From the NCBI GenBank assembly GCA_020723935.1, contig DYHY01000007.1, positions 1 through 53,297 on the forward strand: a DNA stretch of 53,297 nucleotides, given 5' to 3'. The notes under the pieces were generated by a model. It did not search any database. It saw nothing but the letters and a program-made list of their open reading frames with translations, and was not told the origin of the DNA. Position 1 is the stretch's first letter. Every line of letters begins with the position of its first letter. Position numbers and translations under genes: made by a program. The DNA is from Candidatus Micrarchaeum sp. Its GTDB lineage: Archaea > SpSt-1190 > DYHY01. Shown here piece after piece: positions 9,616 to 44,717 of the stretch.

Positions 9616-10299
9616 ATGGCTCCCGGGGAAAAGGAAGGGGCGCGGGGCAGGAGGAGGCGCGGCCTCCTGCGCAAGGCGGTCGATTTCCTGACATTCCCCG
9701 TCCGTGCTTTCACGCTGTTCCACGACGACTTCCTGTTCCTCTCGTCCCTCGCGGCCGAGCGCTTCGACTACGTCGCGGGGGAGGTGCGGGGCAGGTGCCT
9801 TGACGTCGGATGCGGCAGACACAACAGGTTCATAGCCGAGCACCTCGGGGGGGAGGGGGTTGGGGTGGACGTCTACAAGTACAAGGGCCTCAGGGACGCC
9901 CAGATACTGAGGAACCCGGCCAGATTCTCCTTCAGGTCGGGCGCGTTCGGGACCGTCACGTTCATAGCCAACATCAACCACGTCCCCGAGCGCCTGAGGG
10001 ACGCGGAGCTCTCCGAGGCTTACCGGTGCCTCGCTCCCGGCGGCAGGATCGTCGTCACGATGGGGAGCCCCCTCGCTGAGATCATCGTGCACAAGGTCGT
10101 CTATCTCTACGACAGGATCCTGGGGACTGACCACGACGTGGACACCGAGCGCGGGATGGAGGAGGAGGAGGCATACTACCTCACGGATTCCGAGATAGTT
10201 TCGAGGCTGCGCAAAGCCGGCTTCGCGAACATCAGGAAGAAGATGTTTTTCACCCAGTGGTGCCTCAACCACATGTTCGTCGGGGAGAAGGGGAGCTAG
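9616..10299 (+). CDS. Class I SAM-dependent methyltransferase
   Basis: 'CLDVGCG' motif I, 'LSEAYRCLAPGG'. Confidence 0.85.
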   Translation: MAPGEKEGARGRRRRGLLRKAVDFLTFPVRAFTLFHDDFLFLSSLAAERFDYVAGEVRGRCLDVGCGRHNRFIAEHLGGEGVGVDVYKYKGLRDAQILRNPARFSFRSGAFGTVTFIANINHVPERLRDAELSEAYRCLAPGGRIVVTMGSPLAEIIVHKVVYLYDRILGTDHDVDTERGMEEEEAYYLTDSEIVSRLRKAGFANIRKKMFFTQWCLNHMFVGEKGS

Positions 10300-36007: not shown

Positions 36008-37649
36008 GGGCAGAGCCGCCCTCCTCTTCAGTCCTCATGAGGTCAAGGATCTCGATCGAGCCGGTGCCAAGTTCCACATAGGGGATTTTCCCCGGCTGCG
36101 GATGATGGCCGATCTTCACCTGGAATGCCGTCCTGTCCTGGAAGGTCCCCGAGTTTATGACCCGTATCCCGCGGTAGACGGAATAGCCGAGCTTGTGGAC
36201 GTGGCCGGAATGGAAGACGTTGGGGACGCGCCCTATCACCATGTGGTCCTCGTTCTCCGGGAACATCCTCGTGTGCTCGTTGTAGAGGGGGATGAGGTGG
36301 CGCTTCCTGAGCTGCTGGATCATCGCCTGGTGGGGGTTGTCGTAGCCGGTCTTCCTCAGCGAGGGCACGGCCGCGATGATGCTGTCGAGAGCCGTCCCGT
36401 GGTACATCAGGAAATTGACGCCGTCTAGGGACAGGCTCGAGGGGGAGGAGGTCATGGTGAGGTTGCCCATGTTGTAGAGCGAGGGCGCGAACTGCTCCGG
36501 GATGATCGGCTGGGGGTCCGCGTCGCGCGAGGCGTCGTGGTTGCCCGGGCAGGCGAAGATCCTCACCCGCTTCGTTATCTTGTCTATCTGGTTCGCGAAC
36601 GCGTCGTACTGCTTCACGATGTCGGTGATCGCCAGGTCCTTCTGCTGGCCCTTGTAGACCCCGACGCCGTCGACGAGGTCCCCCGCGACGAGGAGGTATT
36701 TCACCCTGCGGGCGATGGCGTCGTTGCTGTTCATCCAGACGGCGAAGCGGTCGAAGAGGTCCTGCATGAACTGCTTGGAGCCGACGTGGACGTCGGAGAT
36801 GAGGACTGCGATCCCCTTGCTCTTGGAAGGCCAGCCGGAGGCCTGGGGGACGTCGGGGAAGAGTATTTCCTCGGCAAAAATCATCTCTCGGGAGGCCTGG
36901 CCGCGGACGGCGATTATCTCGTCCTCGACTATCTCGTCCGCCTTCTTGATGACGGACCCGTTCTTGGAGAGGAGGACCTTGGTCATCCCCGTCTCGTCCT
37001 CGATCTCCAGGATTATGTGCCCGCTCCTCGTCTGGCGCTTGGAGGTGACGAGGCCGATGATCGAGAGCTCCTCGCGCGGCTGCATGGAGGGAATCCTGTT
37101 GGCCGAGGCCAAGCTGCGCAGTTCCGGGCGGATGCGCAGGATCGCGGAGAGCTTCTTGTACCTGCTCGTGAAATGGTTGACAAAGTCGGAGACCTCCCCC
37201 TTCATGTCGAAGAGCTCATGGTATTCGTCCAGGATCCGCGTGCCCTCGTCCGAGGAGGACATCGTCGCCGGGCCGTTGCCGCCGACGCCCAAGCCCGTGT
37301 CTATCCCGGAGCCGCCCTCGAGGCGCCCGCCCATTTCGCCGGGAATGGCCTTGAGAATCGTGAGGGTGAGCCTGCCGCCGGAAATCGCCGAGACGTCCAG
37401 ACCCCGGAGGAAGTGGGGGTTCGTCTTCAGGAAATCCAGGGCCTGGGGCTCGATCATGACGCCCTTGTCGAGGAGCGAGACGACGACCTGCTCAACTGTC
37501 GGCAGGCTCTCCGAGCTTCCCGCCACCCCTATTTCCGTACCATCCATCTGCCCAAAACCCCTAAAGCCGGCTCGGCTCCGCCTTGGCGTGCCTTGCCGTC
37601 GCCTTCTTCGTCCTTTTTCCGCTGCCCAGTGTCCCTGCTGGGTTCCCAT
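36000..37649 (-). CDS. polB: DNA polymerase D small subunit DP1 (proofreading exonuclease)
   Basis: OB fold; 'SDVHVGS', 'GDLVDG.G.Y', 'PGNHD', 'YHG', 'GHVH', 'NSGTFQ'; start 37649 or 37547. Confidence 0.95.
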   Translation of the reverse strand: MGTQQGHWAAEKGRRRRRQGTPRRSRAGFRGFGQMDGTEIGVAGSSESLPTVEQVVVSLLDKGVMIEPQALDFLKTNPHFLRGLDVSAISGGRLTLTILKAIPGEMGGRLEGGSGIDTGLGVGGNGPATMSSSDEGTRILDEYHELFDMKGEVSDFVNHFTSRYKKLSAILRIRPELRSLASANRIPSMQPREELSIIGLVTSKRQTRSGHIILEIEDETGMTKVLLSKNGSVIKKADEIVEDEIIAVRGQASREMIFAEEILFPDVPQASGWPSKSKGIAVLISDVHVGSKQFMQDLFDRFAVWMNSNDAIARRVKYLLVAGDLVDGVGVYKGQQKDLAITDIVKQYDAFANQIDKITKRVRIFACPGNHDASRDADPQPIIPEQFAPSLYNMGNLTMTSSPSSLSLDGVNFLMYHGTALDSIIAAVPSLRKTGYDNPHQAMIQQLRKRHLIPLYNEHTRMFPENEDHMVIGRVPNVFHSGHVHKLGYSVYRGIRVINSGTFQDRTAFQVKIGHHPQPGKIPYVELGTGSIEILDLMRTEEEGGSALA

Positions 37650-37748: not shown

Positions 37749-38957
37749 TCAGTACGCCGCGACCACTTCGGCCCGCAGGGTCGCTGATATCTTGACAAGG
37801 GTCTGGTTGTTGACAAGGAGGTCTATGGTCTTGCTCCTCCCGTACCTGCCCTTGGAGACGACGTCCGCCGAAAGGATCCCGGTGCTCGCAAGCTCGTTGA
37901 TGAGGTCCGAGACCCTGCGCTGGGTCAGGCATTTCTGGCCGAAAAGGGGACAGACCGCCTTGTATTTCGTGTAGATGTCGCCCGTTGTGAAGTCCGGATG
38001 CGTCTCCTTGAGGGCGATTATGGTGTAGAGGACCGCCTTGGATTGGAGGGGCTGGTTCTTGACGAACTCGACCGCCGTCTCGGTGTCAAGCTTCTCGACG
38101 GCCATGTCGACGTGGGTCGCGTCGATCCTGGGCGCGCCGGACCTTTCGGCGACCTCCCCCGCCATCCTCAGGAGGTTGAGGGCGCGCCTTGCATCGCCGT
38201 GCTCCCTCGCCGCATACGCAGCGCACTTGGGTATCACCGACTGGTCTATCACCCCTGGCTGGAAGGCGACGGACGAGCGTGCCTCCAGGATGTCGCTCAA
38301 TTGGGTCGCGTCATAGGGGGCGAAGACGAGCTCCTCCTCGGAAAGGCTGCTCCTGACGCGCGAGTCCACTTGCTTCAGGAGGTTGAGGTCGTTCGTTATC
38401 CCGATTATGCTGACGCGCGAGCTTTTCAGCTCCGAGTTGATCCTCATCAGGTTGTAGAGGAGCTCGTTCCCGCACTTCCGTACGACGTTGTCTATTTCGT
38501 CGATGACAATCAGGACGAGGGATTTTTGGGTGTCGAGGGCCGAGCTGAACGCCTTGTAGATCTTCCCCGTCGGGAGGCCCGTCGCAGGGAGGGTCACCCC
38601 GAAATGGGATGCCAAAGTCGATATCAGTCTGTATTCGGTGTCCGCAACCTTCTTGAGCTGGGCATTGACATAGACCACCTTGAGCGGGAGCCTCTTTTCC
38701 CTAGCGAAGGACTCCATCTCACTGCAGACGAACCTCGTGCCGATGGTCTTCCCCGTTCCGGTCTTGCCGTAGATGAAGAGGTTGGACGGCTTGTCGCCCC
38801 GGAGGGCCGGTAGGAGGACGTTTGCGAGCATCTTCTGCTCCCTTTCCCGGTGCAGGAGCGCCTGAGGGCGGAATTCGTCCGAAAGGGCGCCCTTCTCCGC
38901 AAAGAGGGAGTCCCTCCTCAAGTATGTCTCGAACATTTCACGGAGGGAGGACTGCAT
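37749..38957 (-). CDS. cdc6: Orc1/Cdc6 replication initiator
   Basis: Walker A 'GKTGTGKT', Walker B 'IDEID', 'RVRSSL', 'GDARRA', wHTH 'SKGRYGR'. Confidence 0.96.
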   Translation of the reverse strand: MQSSLREMFETYLRRDSLFAEKGALSDEFRPQALLHREREQKMLANVLLPALRGDKPSNLFIYGKTGTGKTIGTRFVCSEMESFAREKRLPLKVVYVNAQLKKVADTEYRLISTLASHFGVTLPATGLPTGKIYKAFSSALDTQKSLVLIVIDEIDNVVRKCGNELLYNLMRINSELKSSRVSIIGITNDLNLLKQVDSRVRSSLSEEELVFAPYDATQLSDILEARSSVAFQPGVIDQSVIPKCAAYAAREHGDARRALNLLRMAGEVAERSGAPRIDATHVDMAVEKLDTETAVEFVKNQPLQSKAVLYTIIALKETHPDFTTGDIYTKYKAVCPLFGQKCLTQRRVSDLINELASTGILSADVVSKGRYGRSKTIDLLVNNQTLVKISATLRAEVVAAY

Positions 38958-38987: not shown

Positions 38988-39160
38988 GTTTCCAGGCGAA
39001 ACAGGGGTTTTTATTGTTTGTTGCTGCCTGTCCCCTGCTTCCGGTGGAACTCTTTCGGAAAACCTTCGTTTCCGGTGGAACTCTCCCGTGTTTTTCCTGT
39101 GGAGGGATTTTTTCAAATGGCTTACTTACTTATCTTTTCTATATGGAAAACTATATAATT
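38988..39160. promoter_or_regulatory. Chromosomal replication origin (oriC) with ORB repeats and AT-rich tract
   Basis: ORB-like boxes: + GTTTCCAGGCGAAACAGGGGT (38988-39008); - GTTCCACCGGAAGCAGGGGA (39031-39050); - GTTCCACCGGAAACGAAGG (39063-39081); - TCCACAGGAAAAACACGGG (39085-39103); AT-rich 39107-39160; directly upstream of cdc6. Confidence 0.85.
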
Positions 39161-39207
39161 GAACGAGGTGGCTGCCAGAAACCCGAAAACCGAAGAGAAG
39201 CCAAGGG

Positions 39208-39961
39208 GTGAGTTCAAACGGGAGAAAACAGCGCAGGAACCCGAGAAGAGGGGGCAAGATCAAGGAAGGACAAGCTCTTCTTCCGGGGCGCCTTCGACCA
39301 CTGGCACAAGGGACACGACCATTTCCTCGCCTCGGTCGCCGGCTTCGGCAAGCCGGTCGTTGCCGGGCTCCTTGATCAGGAGAATGCCGCGACCCAGGAC
39401 ATTGACACCCGCAAAGCCGCCCTCGAGAAGCACCTCGCCACCCTCGGAGTCCCGCATGAAATCGTCCCATCGGGCCCGGAACTGAAAGCAGCCCTGCGCG
39501 ACGACCTCCAGTTCTTCGCCTTCGCGCCCGACGAAAAATCCTTCGCCGAGGAGGTCAACTCCCGCCGGGCAAAGGCGAGCAAAGCCTCCCTGATTTTTAT
39601 CGAAATCCCGCCCTACCTGGCCGAGGACAGGCAGCCCCTTTCCTCCACGCGAATTAGGGAGGGGATAATCGACAAAGAGGGCAAGGTCGTCAGGACGCAC
39701 AAGCTCCCCAAGACCAAGAGTACAATAAGGAACAATTTCGTCGAGCTCTTCCTCGAGGCTGACGGGCCCATCTACGGCTACCAGATCAACAAGAAGTACG
39801 TTCGCAGGTACGGCAGGATTTCCCTGCGCCTGACCTACTACCACCTGGCAAAGGGCGTCAAGGAGGGCTTGTTCCGGATCAGGGAGACGAAGACCCATTC
39901 CGGCGGCTATTCCTGGGGACCCAACTCCGAGAGGGTGTATTACGAGCTCGCCGGCGCCTGA
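39208..39961 (+). CDS. Phosphopantetheine adenylyltransferase (CoaD)-like domain fused to a C-terminal winged-helix domain; no in-frame start; absent from ORF track
   Basis: Stop-free frame 39212-39958: 'GAFDHWHKGH' (HxGH), 'EEVN..R', 'LAEDRQPLSSTRIREGIIDKEG', then 'IRNNFVELF...YGYQINKKY...SLRLTYYHLAKGVKEGLF...GYSWG...ERVYYEL'. Confidence 0.78.
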
Positions 39962-40028
39962 CCCCAAACAAGAACGGGAAACTCCCCCTATTCAAGCATA
40001 AATATCCCCCTTCCCGCCCGGGCGGGCA

Positions 40029-41399
40029 GTGGAACTGGAACTCAAACTGAAGGGGGCGCTTTCCCGCACGGCCGAAGCCCTCCGCGTGCTGGAAAACCCC
40101 CGGGTGATCACCCACCTGGACGCCGACGGGGTGACGAGCGGGTCGATAGTCTTCAAGACTCTCCAGCTTCTCGGCAAGAACCCCAAAATCGTCGCTATCC
40201 GCCAGCTCGACCCGGGCACTCTTTCGAGCGTTCCCGCCGAAGGCACATTCGTCCTTGTCGACCTAGGAAGCGGCCAGCTCCCGCTCCTCCAGCATGTCAA
40301 GGGCCCCGGAGTGATACTCGACCACCACGAGCCGGCAGGCCAAGTTCCGCCGGGAATAACCCATTTCAACGCCCACGAGCAGGGCCTCGACAGCTCCAAG
40401 GAGATCTCCTCAAGCGGCCTCGCATACCTAGTCTCGCGCGAGCTCGTTGATGCGCCTGAATTAATCCCCTTGGCGATAACGGGCGCCGTCGGCGACGTCC
40501 AGGCCCATAACGGCCTGGTCGGCCTCAACAGGAAGATCCTTGAAGAGGGGGTGAAAGCGGGGATTGTCCAGGCACGCCACGGCCTCCCGTTCTTCGGCAG
40601 GGAAACCAAGCCCGTGGAAGTGTTCCTGAGCTATGCCGCGGACCCCTACCTCCCGGGCCTAACCGGAAGCCTTTCCGCCTGTAGGGAATTCCTCGAAAAG
40701 CTTCGCATTGATCCCTCATTCCCCTACAATTCCCTCCCCTCTTCCGACGTCTCGAGGCTCGTCACGGCGCTGCACGAGCACGCCATCCAGACAGGCCTTG
40801 AGCCCTGGAAGATGAAGCGTCTCGTCTCGGAATTCTACATCTTCCCGCGGGAAACCGAGCGGACGGAAGTGCGTGACGCGACCGAGTTCGCAACCCTTCT
40901 CAACGCCTGCGGGCGTAACGAGGACTGGAGGACTGCCATCGACATATGTCTGGGCGATCGGGGCGATGCCTATGCGCGCGCAAAAACCCTCCTCGCCCAG
41001 CACCGGGAAAACCTCAAGCGCGGCCTCTCCGAGCTTGTCGAAAAGGGCGCAAAACCCGTCGGAAAGCACGTCCAACTCTTCTTCTCCCCCTTGACGAAGG
41101 CCACGATCATAGGAGTCGTCATTGGGATGGCAATCGGCGGCCGCCTCGTCGACCACGACCGAGTGATCCTCGGAGCCGCCGAGCAAGACGAGAAGACCCT
41201 GAAGATTTCCGCGCGCGGGACAGCAGACCTGGTCCGGACGGGCCTGAATCTCTCCTCAGCCGTCCGGGAGGCCGCGGCGACAGTGGGCGGCGTCGGCGGA
41301 GGCCACAACATCGCGGCCGGCGCCACGGTCCCCAAGGGCAGGCTGGACGAGTTCGCGGAGAGACTGGACGAAGCAATCGGGAAACAGATGAGATACTAG
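40029..41399 (+). CDS. RecJ-family DHH phosphoesterase (archaeal RecJ/GAN-like)
   Basis: 'HLDADG', 'DLGSG', 'DHH', 'GAVGD', 'LLNACGR', DHHA1 'GGGH.IAAG'. Confidence 0.92.
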   Translation: MELELKLKGALSRTAEALRVLENPRVITHLDADGVTSGSIVFKTLQLLGKNPKIVAIRQLDPGTLSSVPAEGTFVLVDLGSGQLPLLQHVKGPGVILDHHEPAGQVPPGITHFNAHEQGLDSSKEISSSGLAYLVSRELVDAPELIPLAITGAVGDVQAHNGLVGLNRKILEEGVKAGIVQARHGLPFFGRETKPVEVFLSYAADPYLPGLTGSLSACREFLEKLRIDPSFPYNSLPSSDVSRLVTALHEHAIQTGLEPWKMKRLVSEFYIFPRETERTEVRDATEFATLLNACGRNEDWRTAIDICLGDRGDAYARAKTLLAQHRENLKRGLSELVEKGAKPVGKHVQLFFSPLTKATIIGVVIGMAIGGRLVDHDRVILGAAEQDEKTLKISARGTADLVRTGLNLSSAVREAAATVGGVGGGHNIAAGATVPKGRLDEFAERLDEAIGKQMRY

Positions 41400-41476
41400 G
41401 AAAAGCTTTCCATATCCAGCCAAACATCGGCAAACTTGAAACTAACCTTAAAAGCCGCATTTTCTCTACCTCAAAA

Positions 41477-41839
41477 ATGGACGAACAAATCACTATTACT
41501 GAACTTAAGCAGAAAATCAAACTATTTTGTGAGGAAAGAGACTGGGACCAATACCACAACGCGAAGGAGCTTGCAATAGGCGTAATAACCGAGGCTGCGG
41601 AGCTTCTCGATCCATTCCGATTCAAGTCGCCTCAAGAAGTAGACGCCATGTTCAAGGATTCACAGAAACGCGAACAAATATCCGAGGAAATGGCAGCTGT
41701 CTTCTATTTCCTCATCAGGTTGGCACAAAAATATGACATAGACCTTTCATCTGAGCTTGTCAGAAAGCTCGAGAAGAACCACAAGAAATACCCTGTCAAC
41801 AAGGCCAAAGGATCAAACAAGAAGTACACGGAGCTGTGA
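41477..41839 (+). CDS. MazG-like nucleotide pyrophosphohydrolase (DCTPP1/RS21-C6 type)
   Basis: 'F..ERDW.QYH..K.LA....EAAEL', 'EEMA.V..FL', 'K..KN..KYP', 'KY.EL'. Confidence 0.88.
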   Translation: MDEQITITELKQKIKLFCEERDWDQYHNAKELAIGVITEAAELLDPFRFKSPQEVDAMFKDSQKREQISEEMAAVFYFLIRLAQKYDIDLSSELVRKLEKNHKKYPVNKAKGSNKKYTEL

Positions 41840-41842
41840 CTA

Positions 41843-43719
41843 ATGAGTCTCCAAAAAGATTCTATTATATTATATGAAGGCTCAATTGAACAGTTCAAAC
41901 AAGATGTCTTGTGCAGTCGGTTGATCGATATCTTAAGCGAAAACTATCGGAGATTCTACGGAGGAGTGAACCCTAGAGAGGCCCGCGCTTGGACAAATTC
42001 CTTACGCTGCGTGAAGGATGCATTCGAGATAGCTGAACTATCTAGAAATTATGTTGTCGTTGAGTACTGCCTTCCACACGCTTCCGGTAGAATAGATGTG
42101 CTTGTCTTCGGCAAAGACAGAACAGATTCTGAACACGTTGTACTCTTGGAGTTAAAACAGTGGTCGAATGACAGCATTTCGTCGTCTCCTATAGAGAAGA
42201 ATCTAATTGTCAACTACGGAACGTTCAAAAAGCCGTCGGAACATCCAGCACTTCAAGTCAAGTCCTAAGATACGACAGTTACCTTCGCAATTTCAAAGAA
42301 GTCTTTCAAGACAACTCAATATATCTCAGTTCCTGTGCGTATCTCCACAACTATTCGAGAACCACAGACAAGTTAATCTTTACGAAGCAGTTTGAAGAGC
42401 CGTTAACTAAGTTTCCCGTTTTTGCCAAAGAGGATGTAAAAATACTAGGCCAGTTTCTGAAACAACGACTTGAAGCAGGCTCCGGTCTGGAAGTTTTCGG
42501 CAAGTTCTCGAAGAGTCCGACAAAACCTTCGATGTATCTCCTAGACAACACAGCGAAGCTTCTCAAACGACAACGCCTTTTCACATTGATTGATGAGCAA
42601 GGCGTTGTCGAAAATACCATAATCCAAAAGGCCAAAGAGCTGGCAGGCACGCAAAAGAAAAGCGTAATTATAGTGAAAGGCGGGCCCGGAACTGGAAAGT
42701 CTGTGATTGCACTAGATGCAATGGCGGAAATAATGAAGATGGGTATTGAAGTTTACCATGCAACCGGGTCCTCTGCCTTCACGAAAAATGTCAGAGACAT
42801 AGTCGGACCCACCGCCTCGCCCTTCTTCAAGTTCTTCTATAATTTCACAAAAACGTCCGACGACCAGATCCCCGTTTTAATCTGCGACGAAGCCCATCGT
42901 ATCAGAAAAAACAGTAGCGACTGGGGTGTTCCGCTCCAGTTCAAGTCTAAGGTACCCCAAATTAACGACCTAATTAGACCCGCCCGTCTTTCAATATTCT
43001 TTCTGGACGAACGCCAAGTTGTCAGGCCGAACGAAATAGGGAGTATTGAACTCATCAAAACTGCAGCGAAGAATCTCGGCGTAGCGAACGAAGAGATTTT
43101 TGAATTTGAATTAACCACCCAGTTCAGGTGCGGAGGATCCGTTTCATATCTCCAATGGCTAGAGAATGTACTCGGAATGAATGAAAGTGACAAAACATAC
43201 TTGACCAAGGAAGACCGTATTCAGTTCACTATAGTGGACAACCCAGTCGAATTGAAACGACTAATGGATGAAAAGAACAATGAACTTAAAAATTCTGCTC
43301 GGATTGTTGCCGGATTCTGTTGGCCATGGAGCGAGCCGAGACCAGATGGAACACTTGTGGATGATGTTGTCATTGGAACTTTTAGAATGCCTTGGGAGAA
43401 GAAAGACGAGTTTTGGAGGTGGGCCCGGCACGATTCAGGCATGGAACAAGTAGGGACCGTTTACACCGCGCAAGGATTCGAATTCGACTACATTTTTGTG
43501 ATTTTCTCCGACGACTTGACATACAACAGCAAAACTCTTTCTTGGGAAGCGCATCCCGAGAAGTCGTATGATGCTATGGCCAAACGCGGGAATGACAGAT
43601 TCGACGAGCACCTGAAAAACATTTATCGCGTCCTTCTCTCCCGCGCCCATAAGGGTGTCTACGTATATTTTACCGACAAAGAGACTGAATCATTTTTCAA
43701 ATCAAGAATTTCAAATTAG
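41843..43719 (+). pseudogene. DUF2075 (Schlafen-like SF1 helicase/ATPase) with N-terminal PD-(D/E)xK-like nuclease; split by a 5-nt insertion at 42266-42270
   Basis: 'EY.LP....RID', 'ELKQW', 'HP..QV', 'AYLHN', Walker A 'GGPGTGKS', 'DEAHR', 'TAQGFEF', 'YRVLLSRA'; removing TAAGA gives one 623-aa ORF. Confidence 0.82.
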
Positions 43720-43763
43720 TTGACGCCGTCATGAAGTTTGTTCGCAGCCGTTCGAGCTCAGTT

Positions 43764-44717
43764 CTATCTCGACTCTATCTCCATCCGCTCGAACCCGGCC
43801 GCCGCCGCGGCGAGGAGGATGACCGCCATCCCGGTCCAGAGGAGCAGGGAGACCGCCGGCGCGACGTAGGCGACGGGGGAAAGAGGAGTCCTTGACATCG
43901 CCCCGATGTCCTTGTCGTAGAGGGTCCCACCGCCGAGGGGAAGACGCCCGTGAACTGCCCGATGATCGACTGGATATCTAGAATTATGCGCATCGTCTTG
44001 ACGCCGTCCAGGAGGGAGAAATAGGCATTCCCCCTGTGATATTTCAGGTCCACCATGTAGAGGCTGCGGCTCCCGTAGAGCGGTCCCAGGAACCCCCGCA
44101 TCGTCCCGAAGCCCAGGAAGACGAAGAGGGCGATCCCCGCCAAGAACACGATCGCATTCGTCCTGTTCCGGAGCAGGGCGGAAAGCGAGAGGGAGAGCGC
44201 GCCGAAGACAAAGGAAGGCGACGAAGAGCGAGTGCAGGAAGACCCCCGGCACGAGCGAGAGGAGCTTCCCTAGGACCAGCATGTCCGTCCCGAGGATCGA
44301 GTGCATCTTGAGCGCGGAGAGGAGGATTGCCGCAAGCTCGAGAACGGCCGCGTTCAGGAGGAAGGCGAGGAACTTGCCGAGCAATATCTCGTGCCGCCGG
44401 ACGGGCTTGCTCACCAGGAGGAGGAGGAGCGTCCCGTCCTCCTTCGCGACAAAGCAAGCCGCCGCAGGTGACCGCGGAGAGGATCGCGAGAGGCACCCTG
44501 GCCGTCCAGAGGAAGGAGAGCACGATGAAGATCCCGGAAACGAACTGCGCCTGCATCGCGAGCAGGAGCTTCGCGAACGGGACTCCCGCAACGCCCGATC
44601 CGGCCAGCGCGGCGGAAGCTATTGCCGGCGCAACGAGGAGGATCGCCAAGTATGCGAGCGGCCTCCTGGCCGACGAGATGTCGCGGAGGGTCTTGGAGAA
44701 TATCACGTGCGCCCTCA
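43764..44717 (-). pseudogene. ABC-2 type transporter permease with multiple frameshifts
   Basis: Fragments in three frames: 'VIFSKTLRD', 'AKEDGTL.LLVSKPVRR.EILLGKF', 'FERMEI'. Confidence 0.7.

Follow-up and report, generated by a model that had tools for sequence, protein, structure and literature searches.

A gene without a canonical start codon beside cdc6 in Candidatus Micrarchaeum and a palindrome shared by their upstream regions

Across a region that looks like a replication origin, the cdc6 gene of Candidatus Micrarchaeum sp. SpSt-1190 faces a long open frame that has no canonical start codon. What does this frame encode, and what might its product do beside an origin? We analysed the frame, here called gene X, in a stretch of 53,297 nucleotides (contig DYHY01000007.1, forward strand; the window) together with related loci from other genomes. 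An earlier sequence-only reading had proposed that X joins a degenerate phosphopantetheine adenylyltransferase (PPAT) to a PadR-like winged helix-turn-helix (wHTH) domain. We found that X is a real gene whose relatives are mostly kept near cdc6 and, as the main new result, that a 14-bp palindrome, TTTCNATATNGAAA, occurs position-specifically upstream of X and of cdc6.

Gene X and its two domains

The gene and the parts of its product are as follows.

39212 to 39961, plus strand: gene X, an open frame of 249 codons with a TGA stop at 39959-39961 and without a canonical start codon
39272 to 39697, plus strand: diverged archaeal PPAT-like (nucleotidyltransferase) domain, residues 21-162, matched by NF001985, CTP_transf_like and 3do8
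39305 to 39316, plus strand: HKGH, a (T/H)xGH nucleotide-binding motif, residues 32-35, from translation and alignment
39641 to 39658, plus strand: SSTRIR motif, residues 144-149 (LSSTRIR, 143-149), aligned to ISSTRIK of 3do8
39701 to 39958, plus strand: PadR-like winged-helix domain, residues 164-249 (the last 86), from the family profile, weak PadR matches and a homologue model

In the translation of 39143-39961, the ATG at 39143 opens the peptide MENYIIERGGCQKPENRREAKG (22 codons after the ATG), which runs into TGA at 39209-39211, and 249 sense codons follow. Since the frame contains no in-frame ATG and its earliest GTG or TTG is the TTG at 39869, codon 220, X is missing from the standard list of open reading frames (ORFs), as the sequence-only reading had pointed out. 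The list reports in its place an antisense shadow ORF (39260-39967, minus strand, 235 amino acids, TTG start) that covers X and has no Pfam match. The window is 62% G+C and rich in long stop-free frames, such as a start-less one of 390 codons at 36043-37215 on the minus strand, and the open frame of X alone is not beyond chance in DNA of this composition. The gene is confirmed as real by homology. Its closest homologue, P0003 (database proteins are numbered P), is a 240-residue metagenomic protein with 67% identity over 93% of the query (E 9.8e-99), and matches to NCBIfam NF001985 (E 7.2e-17) and to PDB entry 3do8 (E 7.5e-24) agree with the earlier suggestion of a genuine coding sequence. With P0003 there are 12 fused homologues, of 234-273 residues. 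The translation contains the strings RGAFDHWHKGH, LAEDRQPLSSTRIREGIIDKEG, FAFAPDEK and YGYQINKKY...SLRLTYYHLAKG...GGYSWG...RVYYEL.

The N-terminal domain aligns end to end with archaeal PPAT (COG1019-type CoaD, NF001985; 3do8) and keeps the HxGH and SSTRIR motifs. It scores 61.9 bits against NF001985, the archaeal PPAT model, without reaching the curated cut-off of 104, and just misses Pfam CTP_transf_like at 19.5 bits (threshold 21); the match to 3do8, an archaeal-type PPAT structure, was made with the X family profile. Residues H32 and G34 are invariant in 13 of 13 fused proteins and H35 nearly so (Q in P0006), while S145, I148 and R149 are invariant among the 13 that were aligned. In contrast with canonical PPATs, the segments GGTFD, VTSD and VV(S/T)EET are not kept: the alignment gives RGAFD, LLDQE with a 9-residue gap and FAFAPDE in the window, which reads FAFAPDEK where canonical enzymes read VVTEETK. 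X also differs from them in adding an 86-residue predicted DNA-binding domain. These matches show that the N-domain derives from archaeal PPAT and has diverged from it, much as had been proposed. There is no second PPAT-like gene in the window or in the 38 related loci, and no coenzyme A (CoA) gene among the Pfam matches in the window.

The C-terminal domain is covered by no Pfam or NCBIfam model. Searched against 1.84 billion proteins, its profile retrieved 184 cluster representatives at E<=1e-3 (140 when the limit is <=1e-10); their source names are 'hypothetical' or 'uncharacterised' and once 'PadR family', and the fusions are named PPAT. Pfam PadR (PF03551) appeared below its gathering threshold in two sets of relatives (4 of 39, 3 of 76), with a best E of 2.7e-4, and gave no match to the window itself. 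In the profile search of the PDB, PadR entries were non-significant at E 0.11-0.26, and we take five of the eight weak matches to be PadR-type; a larger profile of 82 sequences gave a best, likewise non-significant, E of 0.18. Apart from PPAT-type, PadR-like and other weak matches, the X family profiles found nothing in the PDB. The fold was judged from the ESM Atlas model of P0167, a stand-alone member that is 42% identical to the window domain (predicted template modelling score, pTM, 0.71). Once the three rows that belong to its own family are set aside, six of the seven structural-neighbour rows carry PadR, with TM-scores of 0.62-0.70. We accept the C-domain of X as a PadR-like winged helix, as had been suspected from its letters, on support that comes through this homologue and is not proof for X itself.

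Compared with PadR (PF03551; 6abt, 5x11 and AphA, 1yg2), the predicted domain has the same helix pattern, GY(E/Q)I helix, recognition helix and beta wing. The X family differs in falling below the Pfam threshold, in its own motifs SLRLxYYHL and GxYSWG, in the association of its gene with cdc6 and oriC, and in that the fused forms stop right after the wing and have no tail, which in the stand-alone forms adds about 15-90 residues. Archaeal fusions of a PALP/threonine-synthase-like protein with PadR (ESM Atlas; Thorarchaeota, Thermoproteota) are among the neighbours of P0167 (TM 0.62-0.63) and show the same joining of enzyme to PadR; they differ in the enzyme, their labels are automatic only, and they have no known link to an origin. 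A motif screen of ORFs of 80-220 residues for a PadR paralogue in the window and loci returned only members of X's own family. Kinship of the X wHTH with the Cdc6 winged helix (PF09079) was considered and rejected (hhalign probability 1.2%, E 0.045).

The comparison set comprised 38 related loci (numbered L) from species-representative genomes, 652 kb with the window included. By title they are almost all DPANN (Undinarchaeota, Altiarchaeota, Woese-, Pace-, Parv- and Nanoarchaeota), and the C-domain family seems to be confined to DPANN. Full PPAT-wHTH fusions occur in L001-L003, forms of about 165 residues with a short N-part and no HxGH in four loci (L004, L005, L007 and L009), and a stand-alone wHTH of about 110 residues (97-188) in the other 31. 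The fusions are of two types. Type 1 has a canonical PPAT, 8 of 8 tested passing the NF001985 cut-off (134-164 bits vs 104), and type 2 a diverged one, none of the seven passing (55-72 bits; the window, P0003-P0006, L001 and L002). The short N-parts align in hhalign to fusion residues 92-138 with the SSTRIR segment deleted, which identifies them, by alignment, as vestigial PPAT remnants. In the C-domain tree, whose root is arbitrary, 19 stand-alone domains are separated from 16 fusions and four truncated forms with support 97/90, and each architecture class needs one change. Read from these comparisons, the wHTH is the conserved core of the family, to which the enzyme part is accessory, being canonical in some members, diverged or vestigial in others and absent from the rest. 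The fusion put forward by the sequence-only reading is thus real, and its emphasis shifts from the pairing to the wHTH, with 31 of 38 loci having no PPAT part and four only a vestige. Such a series from canonical through diverged and vestigial to absent PPAT would exemplify an enzyme domain recruited to, and then lost from, a regulator.

The literature searched describes neither a PPAT-wHTH fusion nor a PadR-like family linked to cdc6, in agreement with the earlier statement that no system of this architecture was known. A core single-copy 'winged-HTH regulator OG0000296' in Nanobdellota, named in one 2026 preprint (10.64898/2026.05.13.725050), could be the X family. Four contigs with a DPANN-type wHTH gene carry other titles, L006 being titled Bdellovibrionaceae and L010, L013 and L016 Methanosarcinales. 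An ERCC4/XPF-type nuclease is encoded on the L006 contig as well, and G+C in the L010 group is about 32%. Their gene layout and X protein nearly match those of Woesearchaeota-titled loci, and they are probably mis-binned or mislabelled.

The shared palindrome and the cdc6 neighbourhood

When the DNA upstream of X is aligned across loci, TTTCNATATNGAAA is followed immediately by an A/T box. The window has the corresponding pair:

39136 to 39149, no strand: palindrome TTTCTATATGGAAA (14 bp), putative operator of X, containing the ATG at 39143
39151 to 39158, plus strand: TATA-like box CTATATAA, straight after the palindrome, with a presumed promoter role

This palindrome is the sole match in the 53-kb window at <=1 mismatch, with 0.03 expected. 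Over the 652 kb, all 23 exact copies of TTTCNATATNGAAA stand upstream of X or of cdc6, at distances of up to 150 and up to 400 nt respectively. These zones make up 2.45% of the DNA and also contain 40 of the 50 copies at <=1 mismatch. The palindrome is kept at the X promoter in six loci without a nearby cdc6 (L010, L011, L013, L015, L016 and L021). In the larger Woesearchaeota clade it lies between the X stop codon and cdc6, and in L035 and L036, where X and cdc6 are about 3 kb apart, each gene has a separate palindrome. Between L001 (TTTCTATATAGAAA, T...A) and L002 (TTTCCATATGGAAA, C...G) a symmetric pair of changes preserves the dyad. Lying at the gene's own promoter, the palindrome would be a putative dimer site of the kind that PadR proteins often have there.

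A separate set of near matches was found inside cdc6. In L020, L023, L027 and others, the codons of the Cdc6 Walker-A motif FIYGK, about 180 nt into the gene, read TTTATATATGGAAA-like in AT-rich genomes. With 1-2 mismatches to the palindrome, these matches are, judged by the codons, a coding coincidence.

The position of X relative to cdc6 is conserved as well. In the window the order is polD DP2<DP1<cdc6 | X>, followed by a DHH protein.

37749 to 38957, minus strand: cdc6/orc1, divergent from X (Pfam Cdc6_lid, Cdc6_C, AAA)
40029 to 41399, plus strand: DHH / DHH-CID / DHHA1 protein downstream of X (Pfam), at the equal position in L001 and L002; we take it to be RecJ/Cdc45 (GAN)-like

A tblastn search with window proteins found cdc6 in 27 of the 38 loci, with a gap to X of <=600 bp in 24 and larger gaps in L033 (1.5 kb) and in L035 and L036 (about 3.3 kb). 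Fusions and truncated forms diverge from cdc6, as X does in the window, and stand-alone forms sit between polD-DP2 and cdc6, directly upstream of cdc6 on the same strand. Whether the fusion or the stand-alone wHTH stays beside cdc6 had been proposed as a check on the sequence-only reading, and for most loci it does. The placement of X across the origin from cdc6 also held up, with repeats resembling origin recognition boxes (ORBs) in the spacer between them. This spacer (255 bp) holds three of the five TTCCNNTGGA ORB-like cores of the window; these elements were recognised by the ORB consensus.

38989 to 39007, plus strand: ORB-like element with G-string (TTTCCAGGCGAAACAGGGG) beside the cdc6 start, aligning with GTTCCAGTGGAAAAAGGGG of L001
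39039 to 39049, plus strand: mini-ORB core TTCCGGTGGAA, from repeat D3 and the core search
39070 to 39080, plus strand: mini-ORB core TTCCGGTGGAA, from the repeat and core search
39094 to 39105, plus strand: mini-ORB-like core TTCCTGTGGAGG, from the core search
39106 to 39165, no strand: AT-rich segment, a candidate unwinding element (G+C 26.7% at 39110-39169 vs 62% in the window)

With these ORB-like repeats, the G+C minimum and a cumulative GC skew that is highest near 36-39 kb, the cdc6-X region looks like an origin. The strict core TTCCNNTGGA was tried as a universal marker and dropped, being absent from the X-cdc6 spacer in 15 of 28 cdc6-linked regions (27 loci and the window). In L017 three ORBs stand on one side of an AT-rich gap and an inverted ORB on the other, with the palindrome in the middle of the gap, and L018 looks alike.

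A possible origin-binding regulator and its alternatives

We hold it somewhat probable that X is an autoregulated, origin-binding regulator of a DPANN family, with a PadR-like core and an enzyme-derived N-domain. A dimer of X would bind the palindrome TTTCNATATNGAAA. In the window this putative site abuts the TATA-like box of X and falls within the AT-rich stretch next to the ORB-like repeats. The protein would thus control its own transcription, and at the origin it may influence strand unwinding, helicase loading or else the expression of cdc6. The N-domain would be the dimerisation module of the fusions, and its retained motifs may accommodate either an adenine nucleotide or a ligand related to CoA.

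BirA and NadR are bacterial analogues of the RbkR type of enzyme-regulator. In RbkR itself, an archaeal riboflavin kinase with a wHTH, enzyme ligands tune DNA binding (PMC5397151). X resembles all three in joining a cofactor-pathway enzyme domain to a wHTH in one chain and, by prediction, in autoregulation through operator sites. It differs from them in that its predicted targets are its own promoter and the cdc6 origin, not pathway genes, and in that its enzyme part is optional and decaying.

Among transcription-factor-type proteins, IciA/ArgP, CtrA and Spo0A bind oriC in or near the unwinding region and gate initiation; they belong to a different domain of life and act with a different initiator, and no homology with X is claimed. 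Sulfolobus UBP is described as a small, basic protein of 111 residues that binds a short motif, ucm, in the origin with a footprint between ORB3 and ORB2; its fold is saddle-shaped and rich in beta structure, and it occupies hundreds of genomic sites as a monomer (PMC12141716). The palindrome of X stands at the equivalent place among the ORBs in L017 and L018, whereas X would be PadR-like with a dyad site, and exact copies of that site are found only upstream of X and cdc6 in the 652 kb.

UBP, published in 2025, is the one accessory origin-motif binder found in the literature searched, and archaeal initiation control beyond Orc1/Cdc6 is little known. A more far-reaching proposal, which we put forward tentatively and consider improbable as a whole, is that X, together with its stand-alone relatives, forms a dedicated DPANN origin accessory factor, comparable in function to UBP or to the bacterial IciA and CtrA. 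Occupancy of the dyad would gate melting or MCM loading, and in the fused lineages the PPAT-derived domain would make this gate respond to ATP, dephospho-CoA or CoA. If true, this would be a direct metabolic checkpoint on archaeal replication initiation. The present comparison supplies a small, unannotated DPANN-wide family, a gene position tied to cdc6 and a precise 14-bp site inside putative origins, and the DNA-binding hypothesis is precise and testable in vitro even for uncultured lineages.

Several observations weigh against X as an origin-binding regulator. No palindrome at <=1 mismatch lies upstream of X in 20 of 39 loci (window included), and none upstream of cdc6 in 6 of the 28 regions (1 of 28 at <=2); in L006, L008 and L029 both zones are empty even when two mismatches are allowed. 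The binomial probabilities of the clustering, 9e-38 for exact copies and 3e-55 at <=1 mismatch, exaggerate the significance, as the loci are related by descent and the DNA between genes is AT-rich. Eleven loci are without cdc6; L004 ends at a contig edge and the other ten have unrelated neighbours, as judged from 24 of the 88 listed flanking ORFs, scanned in seven loci, the remaining four sharing the layout of L010/L011. The fold evidence consists of a homologue's model and non-significant profile matches (PDB E 0.11, Pfam PadR E 2.7e-4). The half-site TTTCCA is identical to that of the ORB core, the spacer of the palindrome being one base longer, and the binder could be Cdc6 or another factor rather than X, which is the main rival for the site. 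Finally, with its missing canonical start, X may be expressed poorly here, or not at all.

The last point leads to the alternative that survives best, one we find unlikely but by no means negligible: X is a recent pseudogene here, or the assembly is wrong near 39208-39220, and the missing start is biologically meaningless. Two features of the 5' region bear on it.

39205 to 39211, plus strand: GGGGTGA, Shine-Dalgarno-like, within which fall GTG 39208 and an in-frame TGA (39209-39211); its counterpart in the L001 alignment is GGGTGA-N5-ATG
39218 to 39220, plus strand: ACG, the sole near-cognate start candidate in frame, 6 nt past the Shine-Dalgarno-like element, proposed from the letters by eye

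Examples of such an error or lesion would be an extra base after GTG 39208, a change of GTG to GTT at 39212-39214 or one of ATG to ACG at 39218-39220. The frame has 219 codons without a canonical start and a TGA directly upstream, deleting one base after GTG 39208 restores an in-frame GTG start, and P0003 opens with V at the codon matching GTT 39212, all of which would suit an error or inactivation. The same genome has GGGTGA-N4-ATG and AGGTGA-N9-ATG ahead of two other window genes, and in L001 the start is an ATG 5 nt after GGGTGA. Evidence on the other side comes from the body of the gene, where all 249 codons are intact, at the identity to P0003 given above, with every family-invariant residue retained; from other window genes, which have canonical starts and ends that reach conserved termini; and from L002, which independently has no canonical start, hinting at a shared cause. 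At L002 9881-9958 the anomaly is repeated, an in-frame ATG (MENYIY...) being followed by TAA at 9953-9955 and then ATC. Between the upstream stops and the PPAT-like domain L002 has no ATG, GTG or TTG in any of the three frames, and a single indel restoring its start was dropped for this reason. X is thus invisible to ORF callers that rely on start codons both here and in L002.

For X in the window, the sequence-only reading had favoured a start at GTG 39208 with a +1 shift near 39262-39266, and this is not supported. In the alignment the frame-2 residues from 39212 match relatives (VQTG in the window, VQEG in P0003, QQTG in L001), which suggests that frame 2 is already coding from 39212 and argues against the shift. 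No notable RNA structure was predicted at 39183-39300 (fold z 0.16), no slippery site was seen by eye near the 5' end, and no Rfam match to a recoding RNA element was found. The same reading was right that ATG 39143 is an unlikely start; it had argued from the TATA-like tract downstream, and the better reason is that this ATG is the centre of the conserved palindrome and reads ATA, in another frame, in L001. P0006 is annotated from the same MENYI as the window's upstream ATG, without an intervening stop. Most simply, MENYI in both would be operator plus TATA box and not coding sequence, and the P0006 annotation probably starts at an ATG within an operator. X may start at a weak non-canonical codon, its sequence at 39208-39220 may differ by a point change or an indel, or the gene may have been inactivated recently.

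Other peculiarities of starts and leader were seen in passing. The plus strand is strongly purine-rich at 39170-39270, with AT and GC skews that reach 0.78 and 0.39, covering the presumed 5' leader of X and its variable, charged N-terminal tail. Positions 39190-39211 loosely resemble an ORB right half with G-string, and GGGGTGA could be an ORB remnant instead of, or besides, a Shine-Dalgarno element. Apart from its first residue, P0039 (174 residues) matches an equally long C-terminal stretch of the L001 fusion and is without the HxGH part; by this match it is an internal-start call, a further mis-called start within the X family.

The next alternative, which we judge rather improbable, concerns the site. 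In it the palindrome is a Cdc6/Orc1 site or another origin element, and X is no more than a neighbour under Cdc6 control, which either works as an ordinary transcription factor on other targets or acts on protein partners. The half-sites are indeed equal (TTTCCA-G-TGGAAA in the ORB core vs TTTCCA-TA-TGGAAA in the 14-bp palindrome), the palindrome stands among ORBs in L017 and L018, and 22 of the 28 cdc6 upstream regions carry it at <=1 mismatch. Orc1 binds DNA as a monomer. The perfect dyad with its symmetric compensatory change suits a symmetric dimer such as PadR, the palindrome persists at the X promoter in the six loci without a nearby cdc6, and the X C-domain, as noted, has no specific kinship to the Cdc6 winged helix; these points favour X itself as the predicted binder.

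It is distinctly less probable that X is a bifunctional PPAT and regulator, of the BirA, NadR or RbkR kind, for genes of the CoA pathway or transport, its place at the origin being incidental. RbkR is an archaeal precedent for an enzyme with a wHTH and ligand-controlled DNA binding (PMC5397151); all eight type-1 relatives tested score above the curated PPAT cut-off, and the window keeps HxGH and SSTRIR. Yet the window domain is well under that cut-off (62 bits vs 104) and without the VTSD and VVTEETK segments, and most relatives are without an enzyme part altogether. Moreover, the window has no CoA gene, neither it nor the loci have a second PPAT-like gene, and the exact palindromes are all at X or cdc6, none being at a metabolic gene in the roughly 20 kb seen per genome.

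Translation from ATG 39143 with read-through of TGA 39209-39211 is hardly credible: the ATG is in frame, L002 is laid out alike with TAA and P0006 is annotated from MENYI without a stop, but MENYI coincides with the palindrome and TATA box, L001 has ATA in another frame with its ATG downstream behind GGGTGA, TGA terminates polD DP2, DP1 and cdc6, the sole tRNA of the window is Arg, and neither an Rfam match nor a notable RNA structure was found. Recoding of TGA, including as selenocysteine, was rejected as a candidate, the three TGA-terminated genes ending at conserved termini.

Other observations at the locus and its relatives

Two relatives and one stretch downstream of X showed irregularities of their own. 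In L032 (1330-2943, cdc6) and L033 (18673-20069, polD DP2) the match falls in two separated pieces, which hints at inserted DNA, perhaps an intein, or at a faulty assembly. In the window, 41400-43800 is a low-G+C island (about 50% vs 62% overall) that holds a MazG-like gene (41549-41839) and ORFs at 41843-42265 and 42532-43716. These two ORFs match the N- and C-terminal parts, respectively, of one candidate defence model, PDC-S41, and the second also matches Nhi, AbiO and a Schlafen-like helicase. From these matches the two ORFs resemble the pieces of one defence gene, split or frameshifted, that was acquired beside the origin.

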